A stretch of 64,000 nt of DNA. Origin: Phyllobates terribilis. Taxonomy: Eukaryota. Shown here piece after piece: positions 2,480 to 53,939 of the stretch. The DNA lies in contig NW_027362762.1 in NCBI RefSeq assembly GCF_046119375.1, forward strand, positions 407,030,001 through 407,094,000, given 5' to 3'. A program made the translations under genes and the position numbers. The notes under the pieces are model-generated. The model searched no databases. It saw only the letters and a list, made by a program, of their open reading frames with translations, and was not told the DNA's origin. How positions within the stretch are numbered: the first letter of the stretch is position 1; the number at the start of each line of letters is the position of its first letter.

Positions 2480-4715
2480 ATCATTCTATTAGTCCATCTA
2501 TACTGACCTCCATCAGGTTGCAAATTGAATATAATTTTTTTCTGCATCTAGCTCTGAAAAAATATTGGGCTTCTAGCTGTGTGTGGGACTTGTTGTATTA
2601 GTCCATCTATACTGACCTCCATCAGGTTGCAAACTGCATATATTTTTTTCTTCATCTACCTCTGAAAAAATATTGGGCTTCTAGCTGTGTGTGGGACTTG
2701 TTCTATTAATCCATCTATACAGACCTCCATCAGGTTGCAAACTGAATATATTTTTTTCTGCATCTACCTCTGAAAAAATATTGGGCTTCTAGCTGTGTGT
2801 GGGACTTGTTGTATTAGTCCATCTATACTGACCTCCATCAGGTTGCAAACTGAATATATTTTTTTCTGCATCTACCTCTGAAAAAATATTGGGCTTCTAG
2901 CTGTGTGTGGGACTTGTTCTATTAATCCATCTATACAGACCTCCATCAGGTTGCAAACTGAATATATTTTTTTCTGCATCTACCTCTGAAAAAATATTGG
3001 GCTTCTAGCTGTGTGTGGGACTTGTTCTATTAATCCATCTATACAGACCTCCATCAGGTTGCAAACTGAATATATTTTTTTCTGCATCTACCTCTGAAAA
3101 AATATTGGGCTTCTAGCTGTGTGTGGGACTTGTTGTATTAGTCCATCTATACTGACCTCCATCAGGTTGCAAACTGAATATATTTTTTTCTGCATCTACC
3201 TCTGAAAAAATATTGGGCTTCTAGCTGTGTGTAGGACTTGTTCTATTAATCCATCTATACAGACCTCCATCAGGTTGCAAACTGAATATATTTCTTTCTG
3301 CATCTACCTCTGAAAAAATATTGGGCTTCTAGCTGTGTGTGGGACTTGTTGTATTAGTCCATCTATACTGACCTCCATCAGGTTGCAAACTGAATATATT
3401 TTTTTCTGCATTTAAATCTGAAAAAATATTGGGCTTCTAGCTGTGTGTGGGACTTGTTCTATTAATCCATCTATACAGACCTCCATCAGGTTGCAAATTG
3501 AATATAATTTTTTTCTGCATCTAGCTCTGAAAAAATATTGGGCTTCTAGCTGTGTGTGGGACTTGTTGTATTAGTCCATCTATACTGACCTCCATCAGGT
3601 TGCAAACTGCATATATTTTTTTCTTCATCTACCTCTGAAAAAATATTGGGCTTCTAGCTGTGTGTGGGACTTGTTCTATTAATCCATCTATACAGACCTC
3701 CATCAGGTTGCAAACTGAATATATTTTTTTCTGCATCTACCTCTGAAAAAATATTGGGCTTCTAGCTGTGTGTGGGACTTGTTGTATTAGTCCATCTATA
3801 CTGACCTCCATCAGGTTGCAAACTGAATATATTTTTTTCTGCATCTACCTCTGAAAAAATATTGGGCTTCTAGCTGTGTGTGGGACTTGTTCTATTAATC
3901 CATCTATACAGACCTCCATCAGGTTGCAAACTGAATATATTTTTTTCTGCATCTACCTCTGAAAAAATATTGGGCTTCTAGCTGTGTGTGGGACTTGTTC
4001 TATTAATCCATCTATACAGACCTCCATCAGGTTGCAAACTGAATATATTTTTTTCTGCATCTACCTCTGAAAAAATATTGGGCTTCTAGCTGTGTGTGGG
4101 ACTTGTTGTATTAGTCCATCTATACTGACCTCCATCAGGTTGCAAACTGAATATATTTTTTTCTGCATCTACCTCTGAAAAAATATTGGGCTTCTAGCTG
4201 TGTGTAGGACTTGTTCTATTAATCCATCTATACAGACCTCCATCAGGTTGCAAACTGAATATATTTCTTTCTGCATCTACCTCTGAAAAAATATTGGGCT
4301 TCTAGCTGTGTGTGGGACTTGTTGTATTAGTCCATCTATACTGACCTCCATCAGGTTGCAAACTGAATATATTTTTTTCTGCATCTACCTCTGAAAAAAT
4401 ATTGGGCTTCTAGCTGTGTGTGGGACTTGTTCTATTAATCCATCTATACAGACCTCCATCAGGTTGCAAACTGAATATATTTTTTTCTGCATCTACCTCT
4501 GAAAAAATATTGGTCTTCTAGCTGTGTGTGGGACTTGTTCTATTAATCCATCTATACAGACCTCCATCAGGTTGCAAACTGAATATATTTTTTTCTGCAT
4601 CTAGCTCTGAAAAAATATTTGGCCTTCTAGCAGTGTGTGGGACTTTCTCTATTAGTCCATCTATACTGACCTCCATCAGGTTGCAAATTGAATATAATTT
4701 TTTTCTGCATCTAAC
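2480..4715. repeat. 108-bp tandem array (~21 units) with a duplicated 9-unit, 973-bp higher-order repeat
   Basis: The ttgggcttctagc motif recurs every 108 nt (2565, 2673, 2781...). Diagnostic variants recur at +973: caaattg 2521/3494, gtaggact 3231/4204, atatttcttt 3288/4261. Confidence 0.95.
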
Positions 4716-4829
4716 CCAGCCAATAGTTTTGGCCTAATACCACAGTTTGGCCACTCAGCTCTGCTCGGTTCCCATCCATTGTTTTTTTGTGCAAACAACT
4801 CCAGAGTTGTTAATTAGTTAACCACCAAA

Positions 4830-7800
4830 ATGAGTGGAAAAAGGCCTGCTGCTGATGGAAAGGGGAATAGGCGTGTTGGGAAGGGGAAAAAAGGTTGTGT
4901 CCGTGGGGTAGGTGTTAAAGCAACAGTAACATCTGCAGAAGAAAGACCATCTTCCAGCCAAACTAAAATGTCTACTTCTTTTAGCGGACAATGTGATAAG
5001 ATCCCTTTCTTACGGCCACGCCAATCACTACAAATTCCAGATGAGGCACAAAAACAGCAGGTGCTTCAACGGATATCAAGTGCTCCTTTAAGTGGGCTCT
5101 CCTCCACATCAACTTCAACATCACAAATACTCCAGTCCTCAAAGGTGTCACCCCAATCGCACTTGCTTCCTCACAGCTCCCAAATCTCCAGTTGCCCGTC
5201 TGAGTATGAGGTAGAACAGATGGTTGAGTCTGCAGAGCTGTTTACTCATACTATAGCCTGGGAATCAGAGGTCGACTCCAGCGCTTCTGTGAATCCAGAC
5301 GAGGAAATGATCTGCACTGATGCCCAGAATCTTTATGAGTCGGATCCAGGACCAGACGCAGAAGGTTCTGACCATAATGTAGACCCTCATTCCCAAACTG
5401 TAACTCCTGTTGGTGGAGACAATGAGGAAGACGATGATAAGACTCAAATACCTGATTGGAGCGACAACTTTAGTTTTTTGTCAGGGCAGGAACAGGTTGG
5501 CTCTGAGTACGACGGGTGTGATAACGCACAGGGTGATGAAGATGAGGTTGGAGATCCCACTTACTGTCAACCCACAGTCAGCCAAGAGATGAGGTCAGCA
5601 GAGGAGGTGGAGGAAGATGCTAGTGACGACGAGGTCAGGTTGCGCCTTCCTGGACAGAGACGTAGTACTGGAAGCACGTCAACAACTGCATCCTCAAACA
5701 CAACTCTGCCTCTCACCACAAGTCGTGGTGGCTCTTCAGGTCGCATGGGTGCTAAGCCTTGCATAGCCTGGGCATTTTTTCAGATCGATAAAGATGACCC
5801 AACTCGTGTTATCTGTAACATTTGTCAGCAAAAGCTAAGTAGAAGCCAAAAAATACATAGTTTGAGTACTTCATGCATGAACCGGCACATGGACATGAAG
5901 CATAAGTTGCAGTGGGAAGCTCAGTGTGCTACAATGCGGCCTAGCCGGCCGGGCCAACCACCGTCTGCCATATCTTGTGCATCCGCGGCCTCTTCATCCT
6001 CTGTGACTGGGGGGACAGCAGTCACACCTGTTTTGGGGCGCAGACCTGCCACCTCTTTACCCGCAACAGCCAGCGTGATTGGCAGGTCATCATTTTCTTT
6101 GGAGGTGGTAACACCAGCTGGTGTTGAGTGCTGTCCGACATCGATAGCACCACCTTTGGATCAAGGCAACCTAACATGTCCGCCTGCATCTTCCTCACAG
6201 ACCGGCAGTTTGCCGGGGACACCCTTATCAACCCCGTCTAAGCACAATAGCCAGCCCTCGGTCGCTCAGATGTGGACAAGTAAAAGACCACTTCCTCCTA
6301 GCCATGAGAAAGCTAAGAGGTTGAATTTCACCATCTGCAAGTTCTTGGCTACAGAAATGCTGCCTTTCCGCCTGGTGGACACAGAGAATTTTCGAGACCT
6401 TATGTCCGTCGCAGTGCCCCAGTACCAGATGCCCAGTCGGCACTACTTCTCAAAGAAAGGTGTGCCTGCGCTCCACCAGCATGTCGCACACAACATCACC
6501 GCTTCTTTGAGAAACTCTGTGTGTGACAGGGTGCATTTCACCACAGACACTTGGACGAGTAGGCATGGACAGGGGCGTTACATGTCGCTGACTGGGCACT
6601 GGGTATCTATGGTGACAGCAGGACAAGGGGCTGCTGTCCAAGTCTTGCCGTCCCCACGAGTTGTGCGTCAATCCTCTTTATGTCAAAGTTCCTCCACTGC
6701 TTCTGCCTCCTCAACCTCCTCTCAGTCTTCCACCTGCACCCAAAGCCTGTCTGGTCATGCCACAAGCTTTCTAACTGCGCAGAAGGGATCCTGCACACCT
6801 CCTTACTATGCTGGCAGTAGGGCTCAACGTCATCAGGCGGTTTTTACATTGAAATGTCTGGGAAATGTGAGTCACACAGCTGAGGAGTTGTGGTCAGCTC
6901 TGGAGAACCAATTTCATGAATGGTTGTCTCCACTGGACCTGAAACCAGGGAAGGCCGTGTGCGACAATGCTGCAAACCTGGGTGCGGCCCTTCGCCGGGG
7001 CAATGTCACACACGTGCCTTGTATGGCTCACGTGTTGAACCTGGTTGTCGAGCAATTTTTAGCCCACTATCCCAGACTAGATGGCCTTCTGCAGAGGGCA
7101 CGGTCGCTGTGTGCTCACTTTCGCCGTTCGCATCCCGCAGCTCAGCGACTTACATCTCTACAGAAGTCGTTGGGCCTGCCACTTCACCGGCTAAAATGCG
7201 ATGTGCCTACCCGGTGGAATTCAACTCTGCACATGTTGCAGCGACTGTGGCAGCACCGACAAGCCCTGGTGCAATACGTTCTGACGTATAGCCTGGGCCA
7301 ACGAGATCCAGAGGTGGGGCAAATCACGCTGGAGGAGTGGTCTCAGATCAGGGACCTATGCACCCTTCTGCACAGTTTTGAAATGGCGACGAAGATGTTT
7401 AGTGCTGACGATGCCATTATCAGCATGACTATTCCGGTGATTTACATGCTGGAGCACATGTTAAACAGAATTCGGAGTCAGATGGTGGCACAAGAGGAGG
7501 TGGAGGAAGTAGAGGAGGAGGAGTTGTATGCGGAAGGGCTAACATCTGCAAGGTCCAGACGGTCGGCAGCACCAAGGCGGCAGGCATGTGAGGGTGGGGG
7601 AGATGGTTTTACCAGGGCGCATGGTAGCAGCCAAACTAGTGAGGAAGGTGCATCAGCCCAGGAAGAAGTGGAGGACGAACTGATGGAAGACTCATCAGAT
7701 GAGGGAGACCTTGATCACATTTCTGTTGTGCGAGGTTGGGGGGAGAGGACAGAGGAAGGAAGCATGATTGTTACCTCGCCACCAACACAACAGGGACTTG

Positions 7801-8531
7801 GTGCTCCTGGATGCGTAACACACATGAGTGCCTTCTTGCTGCACTACCTGCAACATGACCCTCGAATTGTGAGAATTAGAAATAATCCTGACTACTGGGT
7901 TGCCACACTGTTAGATCCCCGGTACAAAAGTAAATTTGCAGAAATTATTCCTGCCATAGAAAGGGATGCACGCATGCAGGAGTATCAGCAGAGACTGTTG
8001 CAGAATCTTACATGTGCTTTTCCACAAAATACCAGTGGTGCACGTAGTGAATCTCACAGTTCCAACTTGCCAACCGTGGGACCGTCAAGTGTTCAGCACT
8101 CAAACCGTAACAGAACCACAGTATCTGCTGGTAACATCAATTTTGCGGAATCATTTCACCACTTTTTTAGCCCATCCTTTGCAAGGCCACAGGAGACAAG
8201 AAGTCTGACACATAGTCAACGCCTAGAGACGATGGTACAGGAGTATCTCCAAGTAAACATTGAAGCCACGACTGTGTCACTGGACCCTTGCTCTTTTTGG
8301 GCTTCCAATCTGGATAAATGGCCGGAGCTAGCCACTTACGCCTTGGAGATCTTGTCATGCCCCGCAGCCAGCGTTCTGTCTGAACGTGTGTTCAGCGCTG
8401 CTGGTGGTGTGCTGACAGATAAGCGCACGCGGCTCTCCACTGATAATGTAGACAGACTCACGTTCATAAAGATGAACAAATCATGGATCCGAAACGACTT
8501 TTCTACCCCTGTGTCATCCTGGGGAGAGTAA
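4830..8531 (+). CDS. hAT transposase with BED zinc finger, intact 1233 aa
   Basis: BED finger (WAFF...CNIC...HMDMKH); catalytic D (FTTDTW), D (VCDNAAN) and E (SVLSERVFSAAG); CxxH (CMAH); TRWNS; LLDPRYK; C-terminal dimerisation domain; no stops. Confidence 0.96.
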   Translation: MSGKRPAADGKGNRRVGKGKKGCVRGVGVKATVTSAEERPSSSQTKMSTSFSGQCDKIPFLRPRQSLQIPDEAQKQQVLQRISSAPLSGLSSTSTSTSQILQSSKVSPQSHLLPHSSQISSCPSEYEVEQMVESAELFTHTIAWESEVDSSASVNPDEEMICTDAQNLYESDPGPDAEGSDHNVDPHSQTVTPVGGDNEEDDDKTQIPDWSDNFSFLSGQEQVGSEYDGCDNAQGDEDEVGDPTYCQPTVSQEMRSAEEVEEDASDDEVRLRLPGQRRSTGSTSTTASSNTTLPLTTSRGGSSGRMGAKPCIAWAFFQIDKDDPTRVICNICQQKLSRSQKIHSLSTSCMNRHMDMKHKLQWEAQCATMRPSRPGQPPSAISCASAASSSSVTGGTAVTPVLGRRPATSLPATASVIGRSSFSLEVVTPAGVECCPTSIAPPLDQGNLTCPPASSSQTGSLPGTPLSTPSKHNSQPSVAQMWTSKRPLPPSHEKAKRLNFTICKFLATEMLPFRLVDTENFRDLMSVAVPQYQMPSRHYFSKKGVPALHQHVAHNITASLRNSVCDRVHFTTDTWTSRHGQGRYMSLTGHWVSMVTAGQGAAVQVLPSPRVVRQSSLCQSSSTASASSTSSQSSTCTQSLSGHATSFLTAQKGSCTPPYYAGSRAQRHQAVFTLKCLGNVSHTAEELWSALENQFHEWLSPLDLKPGKAVCDNAANLGAALRRGNVTHVPCMAHVLNLVVEQFLAHYPRLDGLLQRARSLCAHFRRSHPAAQRLTSLQKSLGLPLHRLKCDVPTRWNSTLHMLQRLWQHRQALVQYVLTYSLGQRDPEVGQITLEEWSQIRDLCTLLHSFEMATKMFSADDAIISMTIPVIYMLEHMLNRIRSQMVAQEEVEEVEEEELYAEGLTSARSRRSAAPRRQACEGGGDGFTRAHGSSQTSEEGASAQEEVEDELMEDSSDEGDLDHISVVRGWGERTEEGSMIVTSPPTQQGLGAPGCVTHMSAFLLHYLQHDPRIVRIRNNPDYWVATLLDPRYKSKFAEIIPAIERDARMQEYQQRLLQNLTCAFPQNTSGARSESHSSNLPTVGPSSVQHSNRNRTTVSAGNINFAESFHHFFSPSFARPQETRSLTHSQRLETMVQEYLQVNIEATTVSLDPCSFWASNLDKWPELATYALEILSCPAASVLSERVFSAAGGVLTDKRTRLSTDNVDRLTFIKMNKSWIRNDFSTPVSSWGE

Positions 8532-13722: not shown

Positions 13723-14939
13723 TGTAGTGCCGGCGTCCCTGCCCTCTGCTAGGCAGGGACGCTGCTCCCCTCACCGCTCTGCCCCGTGCCCGGCGTCCCT
13801 CTCCCGCTCTGCTGTCAGCGCGCGCTCCTTCCCGGCGTCCTCCTCCCGCTCTGCTCTCTGCGCGCGCTCCTTCCCGGCCCCTGTGCTTAGGGCGCGCGCG
13901 CGCGCTCCCCTCCTCTTATAGGGGCCGCGCGCGTCGTCCTAAGGAGTCCCCGGCCAATGGCCGGAGGACTTCATCATATATAAGGCACCTCCTCCAAAAT
14001 GGAGGTGCCCGAGCAATGTTGTTTGCACCTGTGTCTCACCTTTGCTTCAGCCCTCAGGTCCCGTTGCCAGTTACCTGCCAGTTACCTGTCAGATTCCTGC
14101 CTGATTACTTGCTACCTGTCTGCTAGTCTGAGGTCCGACGGTCTAACTTACTACTCCTGTCAGTCTGTCTAAGGACCAGCCTGCCCGCTCACCTGGGAGC
14201 GCTTCTCCGCTACCTGCCTGCTTGCCTGCCCGGAGGCTCCGCTGTCACGTGCTGTGACCACCAGCTATTCCAGAGACTCTCGCCCGCTCACCTGGGAGCG
14301 CACATCAGCTACCTGCCTGCCTGCCTGAGGTCCGACGGTCTGCCTACCAACTCCTGTCAGTCTGTCTATGGACCAGCTTGCCCGCTCACCTGGGAGCGCA
14401 CATCTGCTATCTGCCTGCTAAGCCTACCTGGAGGCTCCGCCGTCACGTGCTGTGACCACCTGCCTGTCCAGTGACTCCTGCCCGCTCACCTGGGAGCGCT
14501 CATCTGCTACCTGTCTGTTTGCCTACCCGGAGGCTCTGCTGTCACGTGCTGTGACCACCCGCCTGTCCAGAGACTTCTGCCCGCTCACCTGGGAGCGCTC
14601 ATCTGTCGCCTGTCCGCTGGTCTTCCTGGAGGCTCCGCCGTCACATGCTGTGACCACCCGTTCATCCAGAGACTCTCGCCTGCTCACCTGGGAGCTCTCG
14701 TCTATCTTCAGCCGCCACAGGTCGTACCAACCCTATACCTAGAGACTGCCCCGGTTACTTGCCGTGACCTCCAGCCCCGTTCACTCAGAGACTGTCCCGT
14801 TCACTCAGAGACTGTCCCGTTCACTCAGAGACTGTCCAGGTCACCTCCTGTGACTGCCTGCCTGGTCGCCACCCGCTCCCGTACAAGGACCGCCCCCTTG
14901 TATTGTAGCCCAGAGGTTCCGCCTCCCAGACCCGTTACA
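13723..14939 (+). repeat. 5' LTR (1217 bp)
   Basis: tgtagtgccg...ccgttaca; about 11 substitutions and one 2-bp indel versus the 3' LTR by eye. Confidence 0.96.
13954..13983 (+). promoter_or_regulatory. LTR promoter: CCAAT and TATA box
   Basis: CCAAT 13954-13958 and TATATAA 13977-13983, downstream of a GC-rich U3. Confidence 0.7.
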
Positions 14940-14950
14940 GTTGCTCGGGC
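14940..14950 (+). promoter_or_regulatory. Self-priming primer-binding site (not tRNA-type)
   Basis: TTGCTCGGGC (14941-14950) is the exact reverse complement of LTR 14007-14016. No TGG tRNA-type PBS follows the LTR. Confidence 0.8.
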
Positions 14951-14951
14951 C

Positions 14952-15902
14952 ATGGAACCCGGTGGCACCCAAGCTCCCTCGCTCTCGGACCTGTGTGATG
15001 AACTGTCCCGTCAAAGGTCCCAACAGGAGTCCATCTTGGGTCACCTGCGGAATGTCAATACTCGCCTGGATACTCTGACTGCTCCACCGACAACCTCCGC
15101 CAGTGCCATGTCTCGCAATCCGGCAGCTCCGCTGCCCACTAATACCATGGTATCCTACCCCGGACCCCGGATTTCTGCACCTCCTCGCTTCGGAGGCGAC
15201 TCCGTCCAGGCTCGGGGCTTCATAAATCAGTGCACCCTGCACTTTGAACTATTGTCCCACCAGTTTAACTCCGACCGAGCCAAAATTGCATTCATCATGT
15301 CCCATCTCACCGGGGAGGCTCTGGCCTGGCTAAATCCTCTATGGGAGAGAGGAGACCCCCTGGTGTCCAACTTGCCTGCTTTTCTCACGGCTTTCCGGAA
15401 AGTCTTCGACGAACCCGGACGGAAGACCTCATCCGCATCATCATTGCTACGCCTCCGTCAGGAAAGCCTCACCGTGGGCCAATATGCCATACGGTTCCGT
15501 ACCCTTGCCTCGGAGCTGGCCTGGGATAACGACGCTCTGGTTTCCGTCTTCTGGGAGGGTCTGTCCGGCCGTATTAAAGATGAACTTGCCGGTCGGGACA
15601 TTCCTACCACTCTCGATGACTTAATAACTCTTGCCACCCGGATTGACCTACGGTTCCAGGAGCGTGCCAGAGAGGTCACCCGTGAGAGGAGGTTACTACG
15701 TCTAGCTCCTACTTTTCAGAAACCCGTCACTCCTTCTGTCTCTAACCAGGTACACCCTCCTGAGCCTATGCAGGTCGACCAGACCAAGATGGTCAAGACC
15801 CGTCAGGACTTACGCCGTGCCGAGGGGACCTGCTTCTACTGTGGCAGTAAGGAGCACCGGATCCATGCCTGCCCGGAGAGGTTGGGAAACGCCTGTGTCT
15901 AG
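14952..15902 (+). CDS. gag: Gag (capsid plus CCHC zinc knuckle)
   Basis: ATG immediately after the PBS; PPRFGGD...RGFINQC capsid motif; CFYCGSKEHRIHAC = CX2CX4HX4C. The ORF-track start at 14850 is a GTG inside the LTR. Confidence 0.93.
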   Translation: MEPGGTQAPSLSDLCDELSRQRSQQESILGHLRNVNTRLDTLTAPPTTSASAMSRNPAAPLPTNTMVSYPGPRISAPPRFGGDSVQARGFINQCTLHFELLSHQFNSDRAKIAFIMSHLTGEALAWLNPLWERGDPLVSNLPAFLTAFRKVFDEPGRKTSSASSLLRLRQESLTVGQYAIRFRTLASELAWDNDALVSVFWEGLSGRIKDELAGRDIPTTLDDLITLATRIDLRFQERAREVTRERRLLRLAPTFQKPVTPSVSNQVHPPEPMQVDQTKMVKTRQDLRRAEGTCFYCGSKEHRIHACPERLGNACV

Positions 15903-15944
15903 GTTCGCTCAGAGAGGTCCACCTAGACAAGAATAAATCCTCTC
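15884..15944 (+). promoter_or_regulatory. -1 ribosomal frameshift signal: G GGA AAC plus predicted H-type pseudoknot
   Basis: Slippery heptamer 15884-15890 in the correct X XXY YYZ phase. Stem 1: tgtctaggt 15896-15904 / acctagaca 15921-15929. Stem 2: gagagg 15912-15917 / cctctc 15939-15944. The -1 frame is open into pol. Confidence 0.82.
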
Positions 15945-18900
15945 CATCCCTGCTGTTGTCAGTTTCAATCGTCTACGGGGAGAACCGTTATTTCGAACTA
16001 GCCCAACTGGACTCTGGAGCAGCCGGGAATCTTATTTCACAGTCCCTGGTAGAGAAATACCGCATCCCCACCAAACCTCTGGCTGTACCCTTGTCTGTGG
16101 CTGCCGTGGATGGGGGGCTCTTACCACGCCCCATCCAACTCATCACCGAATCCATTACTCTGCAGGTGGGAATGCTGCATTCTGAAAGTATCTCCTTTCA
16201 TGTTCTGCCTGGACTCTCTCACGCCCTCTTGCTAGGTCTGCCTTGGCTCCAGAAACATGCACCCGTGCTTGACTGGCAAACCGGAGAAGTCCTTCGCTGG
16301 GGACAAGACTGTCATAAGACCTGCCTGGTTCCCGTCCATCCCGTCCGTCCCTCTCCTACCCCAGCTAATCTACCTGGACTTCCGATTCCTTATTGGTCTT
16401 ATGCTGATGTCTTTAATAAAAAGGAGGCAGAGACCTTACCCCCTCATAGACCATACGACTGTCCCATCGACCTGTTACCCGGTACTACTCCTCCCCGTGG
16501 GCGTATTTATCCTTTATCCGCTGCTGAGACCCGGTCGATGTCCGAATATATTGAGGAGAATCTGGCCAGGGGATTCATCCGGAAATCTACCTCCCCGGCG
16601 GGAGCAGGCTTCTTTTTCGTCAAAAAGAAGGACGGCTCTCTCCGTCCCTGTATAGACTATAGAGGCCTAAACCAGATCACGGTGAAGAATAAGTACCCCC
16701 TTCCGCTCATTCCAGAATTATTTGATCGTCTGAGGGGGGCTAGAATCTTCACCAAACTAGACCTCCGTGGGGCATACAACCTGGTTCGTATCCGTCAGGG
16801 GGATGAATGGAAGACGGCATTCAACACCCGGGACGGCCACTATGAATACCTGGTAATGCCCTTTGGTCTCTGTAACGCTCCTGCCGTCTTTCAAGAGTTG
16901 GTCAATGACATCTTCCGGGACCTTCTCTACTCCTGCGTAGTGGTGTACCTGGACGACATCTTGGTCTTCTCTCCGGATCTCCAGACTCACCGGAGGGACG
17001 TTCGTCAGGTCCTGCTCAGGCTCAGGCAGAATCACCTCTTCGCTAAATACGAGAAGTGCCTCTTTGAGCAGACCTCGCTTCCGTTTTTGGGCTACATTAT
17101 TTCTCAGACCGGCCTACGAATGGATCCAGAGAAACTGTCTGCCATCGAGAAATGGCCCCGACCGGAGGGGTTGAAAGCCATTCAGCGGTTCCTGGGCTTC
17201 GCCAACTACTACCGCCTCTTCATACCACACTTCTCTTCCCGGACTGCCCCAATTTCCGCGCTCACCCGTAAGGGTACTAATCCCAAACAGTGGCCGCCCG
17301 AAGCAGAAGAAGCCTTTCTTTCCTTAAAACAGGCCTTCTCTTCCGCCCCGGTGCTGCATCGCCCGGACGGCAACAAGCAGTTCTTCCTGGAAGTGGACGC
17401 CTCCTCCTCTGGAGCTGGAGCGGTACTTACTCAAAAATCTTCTTCCGGGAGGATGGTAACTTGCGGCTTCTTCTCTAAACTCTTCTCCTCCTCAGAGCGC
17501 AATTATTCCATAGGAGATCGAGAGTTATTGGCCATCAAACTGGCATTGGAGGAGTGGCGTTACCTGCTTGAGGGGGCTCTTCACCCGGTAATAATTTACA
17601 CTGACCAAAAGAACTTGGCTTACCTCCAGCATGCCCAGAGACTTAACCCGCGCCAAGCCCGGTGGTCCTTGTTTTTTGCTCGTTTTGATTTTGTCCTTCA
17701 TTTTCGCCCGGCTGACAAAAACGTCAAGGCGGACGCCTTGTCTCGATCCTTTCTGGTATCTGATCTCGAGGAAGATCCGAAACACATCATCGATCCCGCC
17801 AGAGTAATGCAGGTGGCTCCCGTGAGTCTAAATCGTCTCCCTCCCGGAAAGACGTTCGTATCAGTACCTGATCGGGAGAAGATCCTTCACTGGGGTCACT
17901 TGTCTAAACTGGCTGGCCACGCTGGTCAGAAGAAGACCCTCCAGCTTATTTCCCGTCACTACTGGTGGCCTACCCTGCACAAGGATGTAATAGACTTTGT
18001 TTCTGCCTGTGTGTCCTGCGCCCGCAACAAGGTTCCGAGACATCTGCCAGCCGGTCGCCTCCTTCCGCTCCCAGTACCTGCTGCCCCCTGGCAGCATATT
18101 GCAATGGACTTCATAACTGACCTCCCACTCTCTGCCGGTTGTACGGTCATTTGGGTGGTCGCTGACCGCTTCTCCAAGATGGCTCATTTCGTTCCCCTAC
18201 CAGGCCTCCCGTCTGCACCCGAGCTAGCTAGAGACTTTATTCGTCACATCTTCCGTCTTCATGGCCTGCCCCTCCACATCGTGTCGGATCGTGGGGTACA
18301 GTTCACCTCACGCTTCTGGAGAGCCACTTGTAAACTACTAGACGTCACCCTGGACTTCTCTTCCGCTTACCACCCACAGTCCAATGGTCAAGTGGAGCGG
18401 ATCAATCAGAACCTGACCAGTTACCTCCGGCACTTCGTTAATGCCCACCATTCTGACTGGGTGGATCTCCTACCATGGGCCGAGTTCTCTTACAATAATC
18501 ACGAGAGCGAATCCTCCTCCAAATCCCCGTTTTTTGTAGTCTTTGGTCAGCATCCTAGGATTCCTTTTCCTGTCTCCACCTCGGTGGACAACCCGGCTGC
18601 GGAATCTCTCGTTAGCAAATTTTCCTCCATTTGGGAGAGTACCCGATCCGCACTCCTTCAGTCGTCCGAACGGATGAAAAGACACGCTGACAAAAAACGC
18701 CTGGATCCTCCTCAATTTCGTCCAAGAGATAAGGTCTGGCTCTCATCTAAATATGTTCGACTCAAGATACCTTCTTACAAGTTAGGGCCTCGGTTCATCG
18801 GACCTCTGGAGGTCACCAGTCAGATCAACCCGGTGGCCTATAAATTGAAACTCCCGGCCAACTTACGGATCCCTAACTCCTTCCATGTATCTCTCCTCAA

Positions 18901-19351
18901 ACCTGTGGTACTTAACTCTTTTTCCAAGTCTACAGGTACGCCTCCTGCTCCGGTTTCCGCTGAGGACGAGTTTGAGGTAGAGAACATTCTTGCCACCAAA
19001 AGGGTAAGAGGAAAGACCTTTTTTCTGGTAGATTGGAAGGGGTTTGGTCCTGAGGAGAGAACGTGGGAGCCCCGGGAGAACATCCATGCCCCTCTCATCC
19101 TAGCTAAATTTCTGTCTGGCCTAAAAAAGGGGGGGCCTAAAGGGGGGGGTACTGTAGTGCCGGCGTCCTTGCCCTCTGCTAGGCAGGGATGCTGCTCCCC
19201 TCACCGCTCTGCCCCGTGCCCGGCGTCCCTCTCCCGCTCTGCTGTCAGCGCGCGCTCCTTCCCGGCGTCCTCCTCCCGCTCTGCTCTCTGCGCGCGCTCC
19301 TTCCCGGCCCCTGTGCTTAGGGCGCGCGCGCGCGCGCTCCCCTCCTCTTAA
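15884..19351 (+). CDS. pol: Pol polyprotein (protease, RT, RNase H, integrase, chromodomain)
   Basis: LDSGA protease; VYLDDIL RT; EVDAS RNase H; HHCC plus D(AMDF)-D(VSDRG)-E(VERIN) integrase; GPRFIGP module; FEVENIL...FLVDWKGFGPEERTWEP chromodomain; no stops. Confidence 0.96.
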   Translation, partial: GKRLCLGSLREVHLDKNKSSPSLLLSVSIVYGENRYFELAQLDSGAAGNLISQSLVEKYRIPTKPLAVPLSVAAVDGGLLPRPIQLITESITLQVGMLHSESISFHVLPGLSHALLLGLPWLQKHAPVLDWQTGEVLRWGQDCHKTCLVPVHPVRPSPTPANLPGLPIPYWSYADVFNKKEAETLPPHRPYDCPIDLLPGTTPPRGRIYPLSAAETRSMSEYIEENLARGFIRKSTSPAGAGFFFVKKKDGSLRPCIDYRGLNQITVKNKYPLPLIPELFDRLRGARIFTKLDLRGAYNLVRIRQGDEWKTAFNTRDGHYEYLVMPFGLCNAPAVFQELVNDIFRDLLYSCVVVYLDDILVFSPDLQTHRRDVRQVLLRLRQNHLFAKYEKCLFEQTSLPFLGYIISQTGLRMDPEKLSAIEKWPRPEGLKAIQRFLGFANYYRLFIPHFSSRTAPISALTRKGTNPKQWPPEAEEAFLSLKQAFSSAPVLHRPDGNKQFFLEVDASSSGAGAVLTQKSSSGRMVTCGFFSKLFSSSERNYSIGDRELLAIKLALEEWRYLLEGALHPVIIYTDQKNLAYLQHAQRLNPRQARWSLFFARFDFVLHFRPADKNVKADALSRSFLVSDLEEDPKHIIDPARVMQVAPVSLNRLPPGKTFVSVPDREKILHWGHLSKLAGHAGQKKTLQLISRHYWWPTLHKDVIDFVSACVSCARNKVPRHLPAGRLLPLPVPAAPWQHIAMDFITDLPLSAGCTVIWVVADRFSKMAHFVPLPGLPSAPELARDFIRHIFRLHGLPLHIVSDRGVQFTSRFWRATCKLLDVTLDFSSAYHPQSNGQVERINQNLTSYLRHFVNAHHSDWVDLLPWAEFSYNNHESESSSKSPFFVVFGQHPRIPFPVSTSVDNPAAESLVSKFSSIWESTRSALLQSSERMKRHADKKRLDPPQFRPRDKVWLSSKYVRLKIPSYKLGPRFIGPLEVTSQINPVAYKLKLPANLRIPNSFHVSLLKPVVLNSFSKSTGTPPAPVSAEDEFEVENILATKRVRGKTFFLVDWKGFGPEERTWEPRENIHAPLILAKFLSGLKKGGPKGGGTVVPASLPSARQGCCSPHRSAPCPASLSRSAVSARSFPASSSRSALCARSFPAPVLRARARALPSS
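19123..19149 (+). promoter_or_regulatory. Polypurine tract (two adjacent purine runs)
   Basis: aaaaaaggggggg (19123-19135), cct, aaagggggggg (19139-19149), ending 3 nt before the 3' LTR. Confidence 0.85.
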
Positions 19352-20371
19352 AGGGGCCGCGTGCGTCGTCCTAAGGAGTCCCCGGCCAATGGCCGGAGGA
19401 CTTCATCATATATAAGGCACCTCCTCCAAAATGGAGGTGCCCGAGCAATGTTGTTTGCACCTGTGTCTCACCTGTGCTTCAGCCCTCAGGCCCCGTTGCC
19501 AGTTACCTGCCAGTTACCTGTCAGATTCCTGCCTGATTACTTGCTACCTGTCTGCTAGTCTGAGGTCCGACGGTCTGCCTTACTACTCCTGTCAGTCTGT
19601 CTAAGGACCAGCCTGCCCGCTCACCTGGGAGCGCTTCTCCGCTACCTGCCTGCTTGCCTGCCCGGAGGCTCCGCTGTCACGTGCTGTGACCACCAGCTAT
19701 TCCAGAGACTCTCGCCCGCTCACCTGGGAGCGCACATCAGCTACCTGCCTGCCTGCCTGAGGTCCGACGGTCTGCCTACCAACTCCTGTCAGTCTGTCTA
19801 TGGACCAGCTTGCCCGCTCACCTGGGAGCGCACATCTGCTATCTGCCTGCTAAGCCTACCTGGAGGCTCCGCCGTCACGTGCTGTGACCACCTGCCTGTC
19901 CAGTGACTCCTGCCCGCTCACCTGGGAGCGCTCATCTGCTACCTGTCTGTTTGCCTACCCGGAGGCTCTGCCGTCACGTGCTGTGACCACCCGCCTGTCC
20001 AGAGACTTCTGCCCGCTCACCTGGGAGCGCTCATCTGTCGCCTGTCCGCTGGTCTTCCTGGAGGCTCCGCCGTCACATGCTGTGACCACCCGTTCATCCA
20101 GAGACTCTCGCCTGCTCACCTGGGAGCTCTCGTCTATCTTCAGCCGCCACAGGTCGTACCAACCCTATACCTAGAGACTGCCCCGGTCACTTGCCGTGAC
20201 CTCCAGCCCCGTTCACTCAGAGACTGTCCCGTTCACTCAGAGACTGTCCCGTTCACTCAGAGACTGTCCAGGTCACCTCCTGTGACTGCCTGCCTGGTCG
20301 CCACCCGCTCCCTTACAAGGACCGCCCCCTTGTATTGTAGCCCAGAGGTTCCGCCTCCCAGACCCGTTACA
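19153..20371 (+). repeat. 3' LTR (1219 bp)
   Basis: Near-identical to the 5' LTR; followed by TSD AAGAG. Confidence 0.96.
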
Positions 20372-39829: not shown

Positions 39830-40384
39830 AACTTAATATCTCCAAAAATGAACTCCTTCGGTTTCCTCCCACTACTAATCTACCTATACCTGACTTTGCA
39901 ATTTCCATTAGGTGGTGCCACCATAACTCCCACTCGGCACGCATGCTGTCTTGGAGTAATATTTGACACACAACTTTCCTTTATTCAATGTGGAAAATCC
40001 CTCACTCACTCATGTCACCTGCACCTTAAAAACATCTCCAGAATTCGACCTTTTCTCACCTTTGTTATTGCAAAAAGTCTTACTGTCGCTCTTATTCACT
40101 ACTGCAACTCCCTTCTAATCGGTCTCCCTCTAAACAAACTGTCTCCTCTCCAATCCTTTCTGAATGCAGCAGCCAGGGTCGTATTTCTATCAAGCCACTT
40201 CACAAAAGCCTCTACTCTGTGACAGTCATTGCACTGGTTAGGTTAAACAATCACTACAGAATACAATACAAACTCATCTCTCTCACCTACCAAGCTTTCC
40301 ACAGTTCTGCACCGACCTATATCTCATCACTCATTTCTGTGTATCATCACTTCTCCCATGCCCTCCGATCTGAAACTGATCTAA
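39830..40384 (+). pseudogene. L2 LINE fragment, continuing at 44153-44240
   Basis: CLGVIFDTQLSF...HLKNISRIRPFLT...YCNSLLIGLP...LNAAAR; tctgaaactgatctaa is duplicated at 40369-40384 and 44153-44168. Confidence 0.85.
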
Positions 40385-40386
40385 TA

Positions 40387-40809
40387 TTAAACCAAAAACC
40401 TGGCACTCAAATAGACTTGAAGATTTCTTTGAAGATTTTTATAAAAAATAATTGTTTAATGATAATGTAGTACAATAAGCAGACGTTTCGGTCCCACGGA
40501 CCTTCATCGGTGTACAGAAGAAGTCTAGAAGAGATGAGCTGTGGGGTATAGTGATCAAGGGTGGCTGTGATGGAGGGAGAACGCGGTGTCCTTGAACAAG
40601 CGGTGGACACCGCGTTCTCCCTCCATCACAGCCACCCTTGATCACTATACCCCACAGCTCATCTCTTCTAGACTTCTTCTGTACACCGATGAAGGTCCGT
40701 GGGACCGAAACGTCTGCTTATTGTACTACATTATCATTAAACAATTATTTTTTATAAAAATCTTCAAAGAAATCTTCAAGTCTATTTGAGTGCCAGGTTT
40801 TTGGTTTAA
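40387..40809. repeat. Perfect palindrome, 205-bp arms and 13-nt loop; Penelope-like inverted pseudo-LTR candidate
   Basis: 40387-40591 is the reverse complement of 40605-40809, with no mismatch found by eye; loop ttgaacaagcggt. Arm content includes a hammerhead-like motif and ttgagtgcc, both typical of PLE pLTRs. Confidence 0.92.
40686..40714 (+). ncRNA. Minimal type-I hammerhead ribozyme-like motif (U4C core variant); mirror copy on the minus strand at 40482-40510
   Basis: CCGAUGA-A-GGUCC-GUG-GGACC-GAAA-C-GUC: core, 5-bp stem II, palindromic ACGU in place of stem III, GUC cleavage triplet. Stem I is only 2 bp. Confidence 0.55.
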
Positions 40810-41493
40810 CACTAGAACTACTGATGGAGTCATTTTGACTCCTTTCGTTTTTTATTTCTCTTCTGTGACTACATTTTTCAGATTTCCGGCTTGAAACTCG
40901 GTGACTTTTCCTCAAATATGATGTGAAAAAAGATTTTGTGAGAATAAATAATTTTGGTGAAAAATTTGCGCGTTTTTTTCAAAATTTACCAAGAACTACT
41001 GAAGGTAGTCATTTTGACTCCCTACTATATTTTGAGGTCCTTTTGTCACTAAATGTTGCTATAAAGTTTTGTGCATAATTTTTTCACTCTGTCTTATTTA
41101 CCCTGATGTTCATATAGATGTAGTTCAATTTACATGTCAACTTTTCACATTTTCCTTGTGTTTTACCTGCTTGTATTACTGTGTAATGCTGAACAAAATA
41201 GCTTGTTTACTCTAGGCTCTTATCTTATGCTAATGAAGGGTGGTGTTTTTCTAAGGTCCTAGCAGAAGACAGTATTCTGGATAGTAACTTTACTTTCAGT
41301 TCAGCTGAAGAGACAAAGAGAACAGACGCAGACATACGAGCTCTGAAGACTCATACAGGTATGAATTGTTATGAAATAGTTTAGCTGTCTGTCAACTGAT
41401 TCAGCCCACCTACTTTTGAAGGTGGCAGAACAGTTATTATTTCTTTTAATTTTCATTTCATTTCTATTTTTCAGCAGGGAACTATATAGAATT

Positions 41494-43738
41494 ATGGAAT
41501 TTGTGAGGAATATGGAGAGAAGACGTTTGATAAAGCCTCAGGATATTCTGGCTACTTTGCAATCCATACCGGAGGATGAATCGGAATCCGAATTGCAGGA
41601 ACATGTATTTGATTCTGACAGTGATGAAGATTTCATTCCTCAGAACATATCAAGTGAATCTGAAGACTCAGAAGGAACAAATCCAGAAGGTAAGTAGTTA
41701 TGTGTATTTATTTGTTCTTCCACACACTGAGTTAGGGCCTGTGCACACTAGCAGAATTCTGGCTGAATAGCCATCTGGATATTCTTGCCGCAATACAGGC
41801 CGTACCTGCCCGCTCATGCCTGAAGCTCCGCTCCGAACCCCGGGCTGGAGCCGCTGTCAGGGACAGAGCAGCGCTTGCTTACGCGCGAGCACGGCTCCGT
41901 CCCAGACAGCGGCTCCAGCCCGGGGTTCGGAGCGGAGCTTCAGGTATGAAACTCCGCTCTGTACCTGAGCGGGCAGGTACGGGCCGGATTGTGGTGAGAA
42001 TATCCGGTCGGATATTCCGCCGCTAATCCAGCCAGTGTGCACGGACCCTTACAAAACAAAAATTCTAAATATTCATCAACTTTTTTACAGATATTCCAAG
42101 CACATCAACTGGGGATCGGGCTCATGCAGTTATGTTGCCTCGTGACCATCCTCCTGGTCGTGGACAGAAAAAATCAGCAAAACGTCCCAGAAATGAAAGA
42201 ACAACAGATAACGATGGCGGCGAAGGTAATGCAACAACAAACACCAGAGAAGGCGAATCTGAAGGAATACTAGTTTCAGCGGATGGTATTCAATGGAAAC
42301 CTGTTGAAATTGGAGAACACTTGCCTGGTAGGCGTGACAGCCAAAATATTCTTCGAGAAGCACCTGGCCCTACAGGATACGCCAGAAGAAATATCATTAT
42401 CGATAGTCTTTGAGCGCATGGCGTTTATTTTTTGATTCATATATATTGACACATATAAAGAACTGTACGCTTGCAGAAGCATGCAGGAACAATAATTTAC
42501 AGTTTACTCTATCTGATGAGGAGCTAGATGCATTCGTTGCGATATTCTATGCTCGTGGAATATCTGGCACGAACCGTCACTCGATTAGCAGTATTTGGTG
42601 TAATGACTGGGGAATACCGTTTTGCAAAGCGACAATGTCTAGGGACCGCTTTGTTGAAATTATGAGGTTTCTCAGATTTGATGAGAAATCTACTCGATCG
42701 GAGAGACTGCAAACGGACAAGTTTGCTCTATTTTCTACTGTGTGGGACAGGTTTATTGAAAATTGTATTGCGTGTTACAAACCTGGCCCATACATAACGG
42801 TGGATGAGCAACTTTTCCCAAGCAAAACTAGGTGTCCATTCACGCAGTACATGCCTTCCAAACCAGATAAATATGGCCACAAATATTGGCTAGCTGTTGA
42901 TAAGAGGAGCAAATATCTGGCAAATGGCTTCCCTTATCTAGGCAAAGATGACACACGCCGTGCTGAGGACCGTTTAGCTGACCATGTGGTAATGAAGTTA
43001 TTGGACCCGTTTTTGAAAAAAGGTCGCAATGTTACAACCGATAATTATTTTACTTCAGTAAAATTAGCTAAACAGCTAAAAAGCAAAGGAACAACCATCG
43101 TGGGAACACTGAACAAGATAAGGCGAGAAGTGCCTAAAGAAATAAAATCCATGAAAGAGGAATTGTACAACACTAAAGTGTTTAGAAATGAAGACAATTT
43201 TACACTTACAGTATATCAAGGAAAGCCCAACAAAAATGTTGTCATTTTGAGTTCCGTCCATCCAGATGTTGTTGTTGCGTCTGATTCCGCTAAAAAAACT
43301 CCAGAAACGGTAAAGTTTTACAATGAAACAAAATATGGAGTAGATGTAGTGGATCAGATGGCACGAAAATATACCACACGAACATGCACAAGGAGATGGC
43401 CTGTTCATGCATTTGAAAATGCCTTAGACTTTGCGGGTATAAATGCATGGATAATATTCAAAGAGATTACCCACCAAAAAATGTCACGCAAGGCATTTTT
43501 GCAAACGCTTGTGAGAGAGTTGAGTGGTCCTTATGTCACAGATAGGGAAAAGGGTTCCACGTCCCAAGTTTCTACATGCTCAGAAGTGATGGTTCAAACA
43601 AAATTTTGCCAGATCAAAGAAAAGTGCAAGAAAAATAGATCTGTCGGAAATTGTAAGACTTGTGGTAAGTCTTTGTGTGGGCAATGTACTGCCATAAATC
43701 AAAGGCAATGCCTAAAATGCGAAACACCAAATGTTTAG
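41494..43738 (+). pseudogene. Spliced piggyBac transposase (exons 41494-41689 and 42091-43738) with one frameshift at ~42408
   Basis: Acidic N-terminus; GAAG|gtaagt donor and ttttttacag| acceptor join in frame. Catalytic VDEQL, TDNYFTS and GVDVVDQ. C-terminal cysteine-rich domain (CQIKEKC...CKTCGKSLCGQC...CLKC). Adding one base restores DSPLSAW. Confidence 0.88.
41735..42048. mobile_element. PIF/Harbinger-type foldback MITE inside the piggyBac intron
   Basis: TIRs GGGCCTGTGCACACT / AGTGTGCACGGACCC; TTA TSD (41732-41734 / 42049-42051); long internal palindrome. Confidence 0.85.
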
Positions 43739-44249
43739 AAGGTGAATTCTGCGCCATATTTTCATTTTTATGCTCCTCCACCTACATTTTCTCTGCTTTT
43801 TGTTCTTCAGTTGTTGTTTATATGTGTGCACTTGAATAAAAAAAAATGTTTGAAAAACGTCTATTATAATTATTGTTATTTTCTGTAGAAAAATAAGAAA
43901 AGCAGAAAAAAAACAATCAAAAGCATTACTGTTGGATCTCACAATAATAATACATTACAAAAAATATAATTATTAATAAATAACCACAAATGAAACTCTA
44001 AAAATAAACGAAAACAAGCAAGGAGTCAAAATGACTCCTTTCAGTAGTTCTAGGCGGGGTCACGAGTCCAGTAGTCCTAGTGTTAATATTACGTCGGGCT
44101 TGCAACCCTACCTGAGCACCTCACTACTCCAGGAGTGCGGTAGTTTCTCTATTCTGAAACTGATCTAAGACTGACATCCTCCTTAATCAGAACCTCACAC
44201 ATCCATCTCCAAGAATTCTCTCGTGCCGTGCCAGTTTTCTATAATGATC

Positions 44250-51082: not shown

Positions 51083-51492
51083 CTCATGAACATTAATATT
51101 AGTTTACCCTGTGTTTACCTCACAGACTACTGTTCTCCTTACTCTTGGGGTGATCATTGTTGGTCACCACTACTCCATTTATGTATACTATGTCTGTTGG
51201 TGTATTCATGGATTTTAAAGTTATGTAGAGATGGTTTTGTATCCATTTCCAGCCTGATGAATATCAGCGACTCTTCACGAACATCCTTTGTTTGTGCCAT
51301 GATACACTTCCAAGAACACGTGTTGTTAAAATCAGACTTTGATAGATCCCTGATTTTAAATTAAGACAGGTTGCTCACTCACATCTGATTGTCATCCCAT
51401 TAATTGGAAACACCAGAATCTAATTTCACCTTCAAATTATATGCTAATCTTAAACCCTTTTTCAGATGTGTTTTATACATATAGAACATGTA

Positions 51493-53141
51493 CAGTCATA
51501 TGAAAAAGTTTGGGCACCCCTATTAATCTTAAGCTTAATGTTTTATAAAAATTGGTGTTTTTGCAACAGCTATTTCAGTTTGATATATGTAATAACTGTT
51601 GGACACAGTAATGTTTCTGCCTTGAAATGAGGTTTATTGTGCTAACAGAAAATGTGCAATCTGCATTCAAACAAAATTTGACAGGTGCATAAGTATGGGC
51701 ACCCTTAACATTTTCTTGTTTTAAATACTCCTGCCTACTTTTTACTGACTTACTAAAGCACTTTTTTTGGTTTTGTAACCTCATTGAGCTTTGAACTTTA
51801 TAGCCAGGTGTATGCAATCATGAGAAAAGCTACTTAAAGTGGCCACTTGCAAGTTGTTCTCCTGTTTGAATCTCCTCTGAAGAGTGGCATCATGGGCTCC
51901 TCAAAACAACTGTCAAATGATCTGAAAACAAAGATTATTCAACATAGTTGTTCAGGGGAAGGATACAAAAAGCTGTCTCAGAGATTTAACCTGTCAGTTT
52001 CCACTGTGAGGAACATAGTAAGGAAATGGAAGAACATAGGGACAGTTCTTGTTAAGGCCAGAAGTGTCAGGACAAGAAAAACATCAGAAAGGCAGAGAAG
52101 AAGAATGGTGAGATCAGTCAAGGACAATCCTCAGACCACCTCCAGAGAGCTGCAGCATCAACTTGCTGCAGATGGTGTCACTGTGCATCGGTCAACTATA
52201 CAACGCACTTTGCACAAGGAGAAGCTGTATGGGAGAGTGATGCGAAAGAAGCCGTTTCTGCAAGTACGCACAAACAGAGTCGGCTGAGGTATGCAAAAGC
52301 ACATTGGAAGAAGCCTATTTCTTTTTGGAAGAAGGTCCTGTGGACTGATGAAACCAAGATTGAGTTGTTTGGTCATACAAAAAGGCGTTATGCATGGTGG
52401 CAAAAAAACACAGCATTCCAAGAAAAACACTTGCTACCCACAGTAAAATTTGGTGGAGGTTCCATAATGCTTTGGGGCTGTGTGGTCAATGCCGGCACTG
52501 GGAATCTTGTTAAAGTTGAGGGACGCATGGATTCCACTCAGTATCAGCAGATTCTTGGCAATAGTGTTCAAGAATCAGTGATAAAGTTGAAGTTACGCAG
52601 TGGATGGATCTTTCTGCAAGACAATGATCCAAAACACCGCTCCAAATCTACTCAGGCATTCATGCAGAGGAACAATTACAATGTTCTGGAATGGCCATCC
52701 CAGTCCCCAGACCTGAATATCATTGAACATCTGTGGGATCATTTGAAGAGGGCTGTCCATGCTCGGCGACCATCAAACTTAACTGAACTGGAATTGTTTT
52801 GTAAAGAGGAATGGTCAAAAATACCTTCATCCAGGATCCAGGAACTCATTAAAAGCTACAGGAAGCGACTAGAGGCTGTTATTTTTGCAAAAGGAGGATC
52901 TGCTAAATATTAATGTCACTTTTCTGGTGAGGTGCCCATACTTATGCACCTGTCAAATTTTGTTTGAATGCAGATTGCACATTTTCTGTTAGTACAATAA
53001 ACCTCATTTCAAGGCAGAAACATTACTGTATCCAACAGTTATTACTTATATCAAACTGAAATAGCTGTTGCAAAAACACCAATTTTTATAAAACATTAAG
53101 CTTAAGATTAATAGGGGTGCCCAAACTTTTTCATATGACTG
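51493..53141 (+). mobile_element. Full-length IR/DR-type Tc1 element (1649 bp)
   Basis: ~210-bp TIRs with outer (aagtttgggcaccc) and inner (aagtatgggcaccc) direct repeats; TA TSDs 51491-51492 / 53142-53143. Confidence 0.95.
51892..52913 (+). pseudogene. DD34E Tc1 transposase with a single 1-bp frameshift at ~52269
   Basis: MGSSKQLSNDL...GYKKLSQRF HTH region; LWTDET, LQDNDPKH and 34 residues to IIE. The second frame is open from 52269 to the stop. Confidence 0.92.
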
Positions 53142-53939
53142 TACCAATTATAATCTGTTCATATGTCCATGTTTTGTTGTGAACTGAGTGGTCCGCAAAA
53201 AAAATAGAGACATGCCTGTTTTTTATCTAAATCACAGAAGAAAATTACACATAAAAATCTATGGGTTTGTGAAAATCACGGATAGCACCCGGATGGTATC
53301 CATGTGCAATCCGTTTGCCGTCCTTGATTATTATTGCAATGGATTTGAGAACCTCTGCAGTTTCTCTAATTTATCAGTGAAAAATCACGGATAAAACACT
53401 AAGGGTAAAAAGTGACATGCTGGTGAACAATGGTCCTTGTTCTTACATACGTGAAAAATCACAAATGTATACATGAAGTATTCTGATCCACATACTTTTG
53501 TCACACACAGACAGGTGATCATTTTGGATCATTTTCCTTATTTAAAAATTACAAAGTATAATATTTTTTACTTATTTGTTTTAGTTGCTTCTCTTTATCT
53601 GCTTTTAGCACTTGTGTGAAAATCAGATAGTTTTAAGTCAAATTAATGCAAAAATAAAATTATGAAGGGTTGATAAACTTTCAAACTCCACTGTATCACA
53701 CAACGTGTGAACCTGAACATTTGAACTTGTGAGCTAAATATTTCACCAAATCTTATTTGCGCATTATTATGGAGGTCTGAATCCAAACACCACTTGCTGG
53801 CCCATACATTCAGCTGGAATCTGAATTCAGCTGGAATTATCTGGTATGAAAACAAATGGATCAAAGGATATATAAATGTTGTAATTATTCTGGATAGTTA
53901 TGTAGCCAATACATTAAAAATATTATACTATATTTTAAT

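Follow-up and report, generated by a model that had tools for sequence, protein, structure and literature searches.

Penelope-like elements (PLEs) are the closest retroelement relatives of telomerase, and how their introns survive passage through RNA has been an open question for two decades. Intron retention is called a PLE hallmark of unknown significance (PMC8557442), selection against intron-less copies is suggested (PMC2377424), and self-priming on an antisense template is proposed, with the request that it be tested against the alternative of an unspliced sense template (PMC3846280). Complex insertions of endonuclease-positive (EN+) PLEs are described as combining an inverted, 5′-truncated copy with a tail at one end and a target duplication (PMC8557442, PMC3846280). 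Metazoan PLEs carry minimal hammerhead ribozymes, with published opposite-strand pairs 100–700 bp apart, and in Drosophila virilis an intron end maps to helix I and the spliced and unspliced ribozymes differ (PMC4209133). In vitro, the protein of PAc, a Poseidon-clade element of the anole, nicks each of the two target strands and extends them, inserts RNA that has not been cut, and begins reverse transcription at a pair of internal positions flanking the tail (PMC11167929).

We analyzed a window of 64,000 nt from Phyllobates terribilis (the whole stretch, positions 407,030,001 to 407,094,000 of contig NW_027362762.1, assembly GCF_046119375.1), in which a palindrome at 40387–40809 carries two mirrored hammerhead motifs. 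This palindrome is a genuine PLE insertion. We put at roughly 80% the reading that it is a non-coding insertion of two head-to-head, intron-free copies of the PLE 5′ leader, most likely made by reverse transcription of a spliced sense transcript, with the element's own enzyme priming on both nicked target strands. A palindrome with mirrored hammerheads is ordinary by itself. An earlier, sequence-only reading of this DNA had missed both the precise splicing of the two arms and the piggyBac origin of the right arm's clean TTAA end.

Of the marks of EN+ PLEs, the insertion has the one-sided tail and the target duplication, while intron retention is seen in the long copies of the family and not here; head-to-head inversion, variable duplication length, a hammerhead in the pseudo-long terminal repeat (pLTR) and an intron-bearing 5′ leader are also shared with the insertions described in those reports. 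Unlike those, the copies here lack introns, open reading frame (ORF) and promoter, begin near the probable transcription start, and have a tail of 66–70 nt rather than 30–40 nt. PAc belongs to another clade, and the ORF in our family begins after the tail, not in stem II; spliced genomic copies are not reported in the accessible text on PAc (PMC11167929). A full-text literature search, whose reach did not extend to key older papers and Repbase entries, returned no report of spliced genomic PLE copies.

The insertion and its parent family

Direct comparison confirmed that the palindrome, as the sequence-only reading had it, consists of two 205-bp arms (40387–40591 and 40605–40809) with 0 mismatches around a 13-nt loop. 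Folded as RNA, the hairpin reached −391.9 kcal/mol versus −100.8 ± 6.5 kcal/mol for shuffled sequences (n = 100; 0/100 as stable). The loop is element sequence rather than a spacer, namely part of the 5′ end of exon 1 (parent positions 2721–2733); the junction, with its microhomology, starts ~4 nt after the probable transcription start.

We searched the frog's own 10.6-Gb genome with one arm and scored 40 of 588 candidates, which held 56 matches. Some of these were full-length, while others covered only arm positions 77–205 and lay kilobases apart; the partial matches belong to long elements with a reverse transcriptase and GIY-YIG ORF. The identity of the arm to such ORF-bearing parents is 99–100%, which bears out its earlier assignment to a PLE pLTR. 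One parent, L034, carries the arm sequence as three separate blocks (2734–2786, 2887–2910 and 3135–3267), between which lie inserts of 100 and 224 nt that start with GT and end with a pyrimidine tract and AG. The window joins these three exon blocks exactly, and both introns are missing from both arms; aligned with the unspliced parent (99% identity), each arm shows two gaps that correspond exactly to GT-AG introns. By tblastn, PLE ORF sequence was not found in the 64-kb window, in keeping with the earlier description of an ORF-less foldback.

The parents encode a single ORF matching RVT_1 (E = 1.7e-10), with a C-terminal GIY-YIG match (E = 2e-4) whose 21.9 bits fall just below the 22.6 cut-off. 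Ahead of the GIY-YIG endonuclease stands a C-x2-C-x2-C linker, which fits the Neptune pattern CX2-5CxxC and suggests that the family may belong to the Neptune clade; this pattern is common to Neptune, Nematis and Naiad (PMC8557442) and hence not decisive. Insertions of the family have a fixed end on one side and a ~70-nt tail on the other. Parent copies lie in tandem ~4.25 kb apart in L033, L036 and L037, forming pLTRs, and inverted copies occur in L031, L032 and L035. In tandem copies the first ATG of the main ORF lies beyond the tail, and a 22-codon upstream ORF (40689–40757 in the window) begins inside the hammerhead core.

Table 1. Features of the insertion and its surroundings (window coordinates).
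Feature	Position	Strand	Remarks
Host repeat, older and dispersed, that took the insertion	40000..40368	+	resumes at 44169
Target-site duplication, left copy, 16 bp	40369..40384		identical to 44153-44168; present once where a host-repeat copy is uninterrupted
Inverted tail-less copy of the spliced PLE leader	40385..40591	-	exon joints 40539/40538 and 40515/40514; three blocks of parent L034
Minimal hammerhead, mirror copy	40471..40515	-	core from 40510, predicted cut after 40482; position by symmetry
Junction	40590..40604	+	2-nt microhomology (40590-40591) plus 13-nt loop; matches parent L034 2719-2733
Sense arm	40605..40809	+	remainder of exon 1 to 40657, exon 2 40658-40681 (24 nt), exon 3 from 40682
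Minimal type-I hammerhead (predicted)	40681..40725	+	core 40686-40693, C4, 5-bp stem II, palindromic CG at 15.2-16.2
piggyBac-type DNA transposon, 3,273 bp	40810..44082	+	TTAA duplicated at 40806-40809 and 44083-44086; terminal inverted repeats
Displaced PLE tail of the sense arm, 66 nt	44087..44152	+	97% match to parent tail over 44083-44156
Target-site duplication, right copy	44153..44168		identical to left copy

The element does not end at 40809, where the earlier annotation had placed its limit, although the palindrome itself stands as described; the tail and the right target duplication lie 3 kb on (Table 1). The sense arm ends cleanly at TTAA because a transposon, which from its TTAA duplication and DDE_Tnp_1_7 domain we take to be of piggyBac type, inserted there after the PLE. 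The transposase ORF of this second element (42407–43738) matches Pfam DDE_Tnp_1_7 at E = 3e-67, and six further genome copies are 99% identical. The element appears young, with an open stretch of 443 amino acids, an intron-like layout near 41360–41700 and a GC-rich hairpin near 41830–41930. The host repeat resembles the end of what is presumably an L2 long interspersed element; in each of the 11 other copies that we examined, its flanks are contiguous and meet in one 16-mer, and one of these copies is interrupted further on. The 16-bp duplication and the joined flanks therefore exclude a fold-back library chimera, a possibility that the sequence-only reading had raised against itself, and show that this is a real locus.

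Spliced copies across the genome

Exact junction patterns, used to tell spliced from unspliced copies of the same young subfamily, found spliced matches 16 times, at 11 loci, and unspliced matches 26 times. Both introns are missing, where covered, in 11/11 spliced loci, and all three parent haplotypes are present among them. Ten of the 11 loci, which form an unselected set, are inverted, and five have two ribozymes. Target duplications of 12–16 bp were called by script in 10/11 of these loci, the window included; a 9-bp call at L058 is doubtful. In L034 numbering, the 5′-most position of the copies falls at 2714–2719 in nine loci and at 2731 and 2737 in two, with none upstream of 2714. The parent TATA box begins at 2684, 31 nt ahead of an A at 2715, and 9/11 loci start 30–35 nt past it, which would place the transcription start at ~2714–2715. 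One locus, L017 (1497–1682), has exon 1 joined straight to exon 3, with exon 2 skipped. From DNA alone, the copies appear to map the promoter, the exons and a form that skips an exon. Locus L042 (G000:C57:155500-165499) contains three spliced palindromes that are nearly identical and spaced at 2.8 and 4.1 kb, probably the product of local duplication. Beyond the tail of the unspliced element at L112:8065 (−) stands sequence similar to the target duplication of the spliced locus L050 and its flank, suggesting a shared short-repeat target.

A shorter ribozyme pattern had 263 genomic matches spread over many subfamilies. Across the genome, an exon-like end precedes the ribozyme in 172 matches and an acceptor in 604 (~1/5 spliced-type); the count of 172 includes some false positives, as shown by L125, where the exon-like match proved to be a mutated acceptor. 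L125 had been a candidate mixed locus with one spliced and one unspliced arm, which we rejected, since both arms are unspliced with the mutated acceptor.

For the subfamilies at large we fetched 60 additional stretches, in which the loci outside the young subfamily were hand-picked from listed matches, and aligned 54 spliced-type arms to 44 unspliced arms. A parent at 85% identity or above was found for 34/54 spliced-type arms; in these, intron 2 is an exact GT-AG gap in 34/34 and intron 1 in 17/34. In a promoter table of 110 arms, which are not independent and of which 26 were unscorable, the upstream TATA box is missing from 36/37 scorable spliced arms, the single hit being inverted-arm sequence by eye, and present in 35/47 scorable unspliced arms. 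None of the spliced arms in this table runs past the tail into the ORF start. PLE ORF sequence was hit at 1/53 spliced-type loci (31% identity, another family) versus 37/49 unspliced-type loci. A tail on exactly one side was seen in 34/40 inverted loci and on both sides in 0/40; the inverted share itself (40/52) is inflated, because part of the loci had been selected in pairs.

A tree of exon 3 (102 arms and 144 columns; 8/110 arms without the 3′ anchor were dropped) shows 21 changes between the spliced and unspliced states, at least 11 of them on starred branches, and a single spliced clade is rejected in the approximately unbiased test (p-AU 3.4e-7). From the 21 changes, the rejection of a single clade and the presence of all haplotypes, we conclude that the stubs are repeated by-products of each subfamily rather than a family of their own.

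How the copies may have formed

In processed pseudogenes, intron loss is the mark of an mRNA template. By the same token the spliced copies are most likely dead-end retrocopies of a spliced mRNA leader, and they likely mean that a PLE copies spliced sense-strand RNA despite the renown of these elements for keeping introns. We envisage that the pLTR promoter would yield a capped RNA whose leader is spliced, and that the reverse transcriptase/GIY-YIG protein would nick both target strands 16 nt apart. On the spliced transcript the first tail would lie ~290 nt from the cap, and an internal start of reverse transcription there would give a short, intron-free cDNA. At one nick, priming may take place at the distal end of the tail, and at the second nick at the tail-less site; each cDNA would then be extended toward the 5′ end of the RNA, and the two would join head to head through the 2-nt microhomology, with piggyBac landing afterwards in the arm's terminal TTAA. 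Without TATA box and ORF, such a copy would be a dead end.

L1 twin priming likewise involves two primings at one target and a microhomology join, but what it inverts is a portion of a single cDNA, which is not duplicated; here one leader is present twice. We lean slightly toward twin priming as the source of the second arm. A possible but clearly less favored source is fold-back, in which the first cDNA, made on the same spliced sense template, would turn back on itself close to the short hairpin of the leader and then be copied. Head-to-head geometry is expected if a cDNA 3′ end folds back, and many junctions do lie at a short inverted repeat at the 5′ end of the leader. Under fold-back, the tail arm should in every case extend 5′ as far as its partner or farther, which is so in 5/10 inverted young loci (L043, the window, L049, L052 and L058), but in the other five (L044, L045, L050, L054 and L056) the tail arm is shorter, by 1–3 nt in two of them; later deletions at the palindrome center could excuse these short arms. 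That the tail-less end recurs at one site also speaks against fold-back. The spliced sense template is common to both routes.

Four further explanations are less likely. A short interspersed element (SINE)-like family, in which one intron-less master arose once and was transcribed and remobilized, would account for the 172 spliced-type matches and for tree clades made of spliced rows only, but it is very unlikely and already largely refuted by the rejection of a single origin; moreover, two distinct haplotype sets contain spliced rows identical in sequence to unspliced ones, junctions all differ except in segmental duplicates, and the TATA box that such a master would use is missing. Somewhat less likely still is that antisense-template self-priming made the palindrome and the introns were lost otherwise. 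This published model (PMC3846280) explains both the head-to-head geometry and intron retention in long copies, and it may still hold for the long unspliced copies, yet here sense-strand GT-AG introns are exactly missing from both arms, which stop at the probable sense start, and antisense RNA would not be spliced at these sites unless it came from an already spliced copy, a kind of master against which the tree argues. At least as far as the spliced copies go, this argues against the antisense-template account of why PLE introns are retained and copies lie head to head. That the locus serves as a hairpin-RNA (endogenous small interfering RNA) source against its own family, or as the switch between cleavage and hairpin that the sequence-only reading had envisaged, is improbable, though less so than either of the last two. 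Any read-through transcript would form a 205-bp duplex identical to the young family, and for rotifers and flies there are reports of PLE-directed small RNAs (PMC3846280); on the other side, the copy lacks a promoter and showed no evidence of transcription, and the long ORFs scanned in the window (n = 5) are all transposon proteins, with no gene among them. The supposed competition is not supported, as a hammerhead of about −6 kcal/mol is outmatched by a hairpin of −392 kcal/mol and the duplex would dominate a read-through transcript, which with one sense ribozyme could form no internal dimer. The perfection of the arms might suggest an assembly or library fold-back artefact or a miniature inverted-repeat (MITE)-like DNA element; given the 16-bp duplication, the contiguous empty site, the displaced tail, the nested piggyBac and similar yet individually different insertions on several chromosomes, we regard this as negligible.

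Several points weigh against the reading of two primings on spliced sense RNA. Wherever both arms of a locus are readable, they carry compatible haplotypes (9 loci, several by 1–2 sites), and one haplotype shared by both arms is predicted more simply by fold-back than by two primings. Intron 1 is not an exact GT-AG gap in 17 of the 34 arms with a parent, most of which have imperfect parents (89–97%) and repeat one gap length; the tree has only 144 columns, and 42/88 of its inner branches are weak. Splicing and the transcription start are read from DNA and not seen directly in RNA, and the in vitro support concerns a Poseidon-clade element, hence another clade. Contigs of eight runs, of uncertain kind, were neutral, showing mostly the unspliced form; in four of the runs neither intron gave a spliced joint. 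A 172-nt contig of low depth covers the two spliced joints, with 10 differences, and counts neither way; a spliced-type contig from X1 was rejected as spliced mRNA, since it matches genomic locus L091 beyond the tail. In one X8 contig an ATTAAA is followed ~20 nt on by an A-run (40735–40760), a possible polyadenylation site upstream of the tail that may also be internal priming.

The copies provide genomic evidence that spliced sense RNA, too, can give rise to head-to-head inversions carrying the tail and the target duplication of a PLE. The result speaks to short copies, and long copies could use another route. We are evenly divided over a broader proposal, that PLEs retrotranspose spliced mRNA, that the start of reverse transcription at the first tail leaves only a promoter-less leader stub, and that long copies come from unspliced read-through RNA. 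Should this be true, intron retention would be a filter arising from where reverse transcription starts rather than the mark of an antisense template, and hundreds of stubs would be an in vivo record of the start site of each subfamily, of its splice forms and of priming at two ends.

Hammerhead motifs and neighboring elements

The two mirrored motifs had been described as hammerhead-like, of the minimal type-I kind carried in PLE pLTRs, and this description is supported: a hammerhead-like core with paired stem II occurs exactly twice on the two strands of the whole 64-kb window, once per strand, at 40686 (+) and 40510 (−). Cleavage of the plus-strand motif is predicted after GUC at 40714. Rfam returned no hammerhead family match at E ≤ 10, and its miRNA matches, all below gathering scores, were rejected as hairpin artefacts. 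Every position fits the core CUGANGA / GAAA / NUH except C at 4. As C4 is common to whole subfamilies (263 matches, versus 405 with U4 in an otherwise identical pattern; sister subfamilies carry U4), it is, on this distribution, not decay. U4C is reported to lower hammerhead activity in vitro yet to suffice in a viroid (PMC3088659). The predicted motif shares with published metazoan PLE hammerheads (PMC4209133) the minimal core, the extra nucleotide before stem II, G10.1-C11.1 and the palindromic 15.2-16.2 pair; it differs in C4, a string absent from the supplement text of that report, and in that the spliced form exists here as genomic DNA in many copies.

In an alignment of 19 rows, the 3′ half of the motif, which lay outside the search pattern, is 90–100% kept and loop II is variable; there are 0 compensatory changes, and the 5′ half is invariant because the search pattern selected it. 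The second splice joint falls within the 5′ strand of helix I, and splicing would therefore shorten helix I, so that here too, as in D. virilis (PMC4209133), splicing alters this helix. The constrained hammerhead fold scored −6.3 kcal/mol spliced versus −8.5 kcal/mol unspliced, both weaker than an alternative fold. Element sequence continues ~160 nt past the predicted cut, and the template RNA of this copy was therefore uncut by the ribozyme. Copies starting at the ribozyme cut amounted to two pattern matches, one a point mutant and one a real start (L157), too few for a claim of cleavage in vivo. The insertion at L157:1400-1660 (G000:C10, near 194634007) is a small palindrome of PLE origin and has a 15-bp duplication; its arm with the tail starts from the predicted cut, and possibly a cut RNA was copied in this single case.

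Three other elements were observed in the window. A tandem array of ~20 copies of a 108-bp unit (2484–4713) stands just before a hAT transposase ORF of 1237 amino acids (4818–8531), and a long terminal repeat retrotransposon (13890–20270) has direct repeats 98% identical and 5.4 kb apart, with a pol ORF of 1166 amino acids that includes a chromodomain. At 51490–53144 lies a Tc1/mariner-like element with 214-bp inverted repeats at 99% identity and a DDE_3 match.
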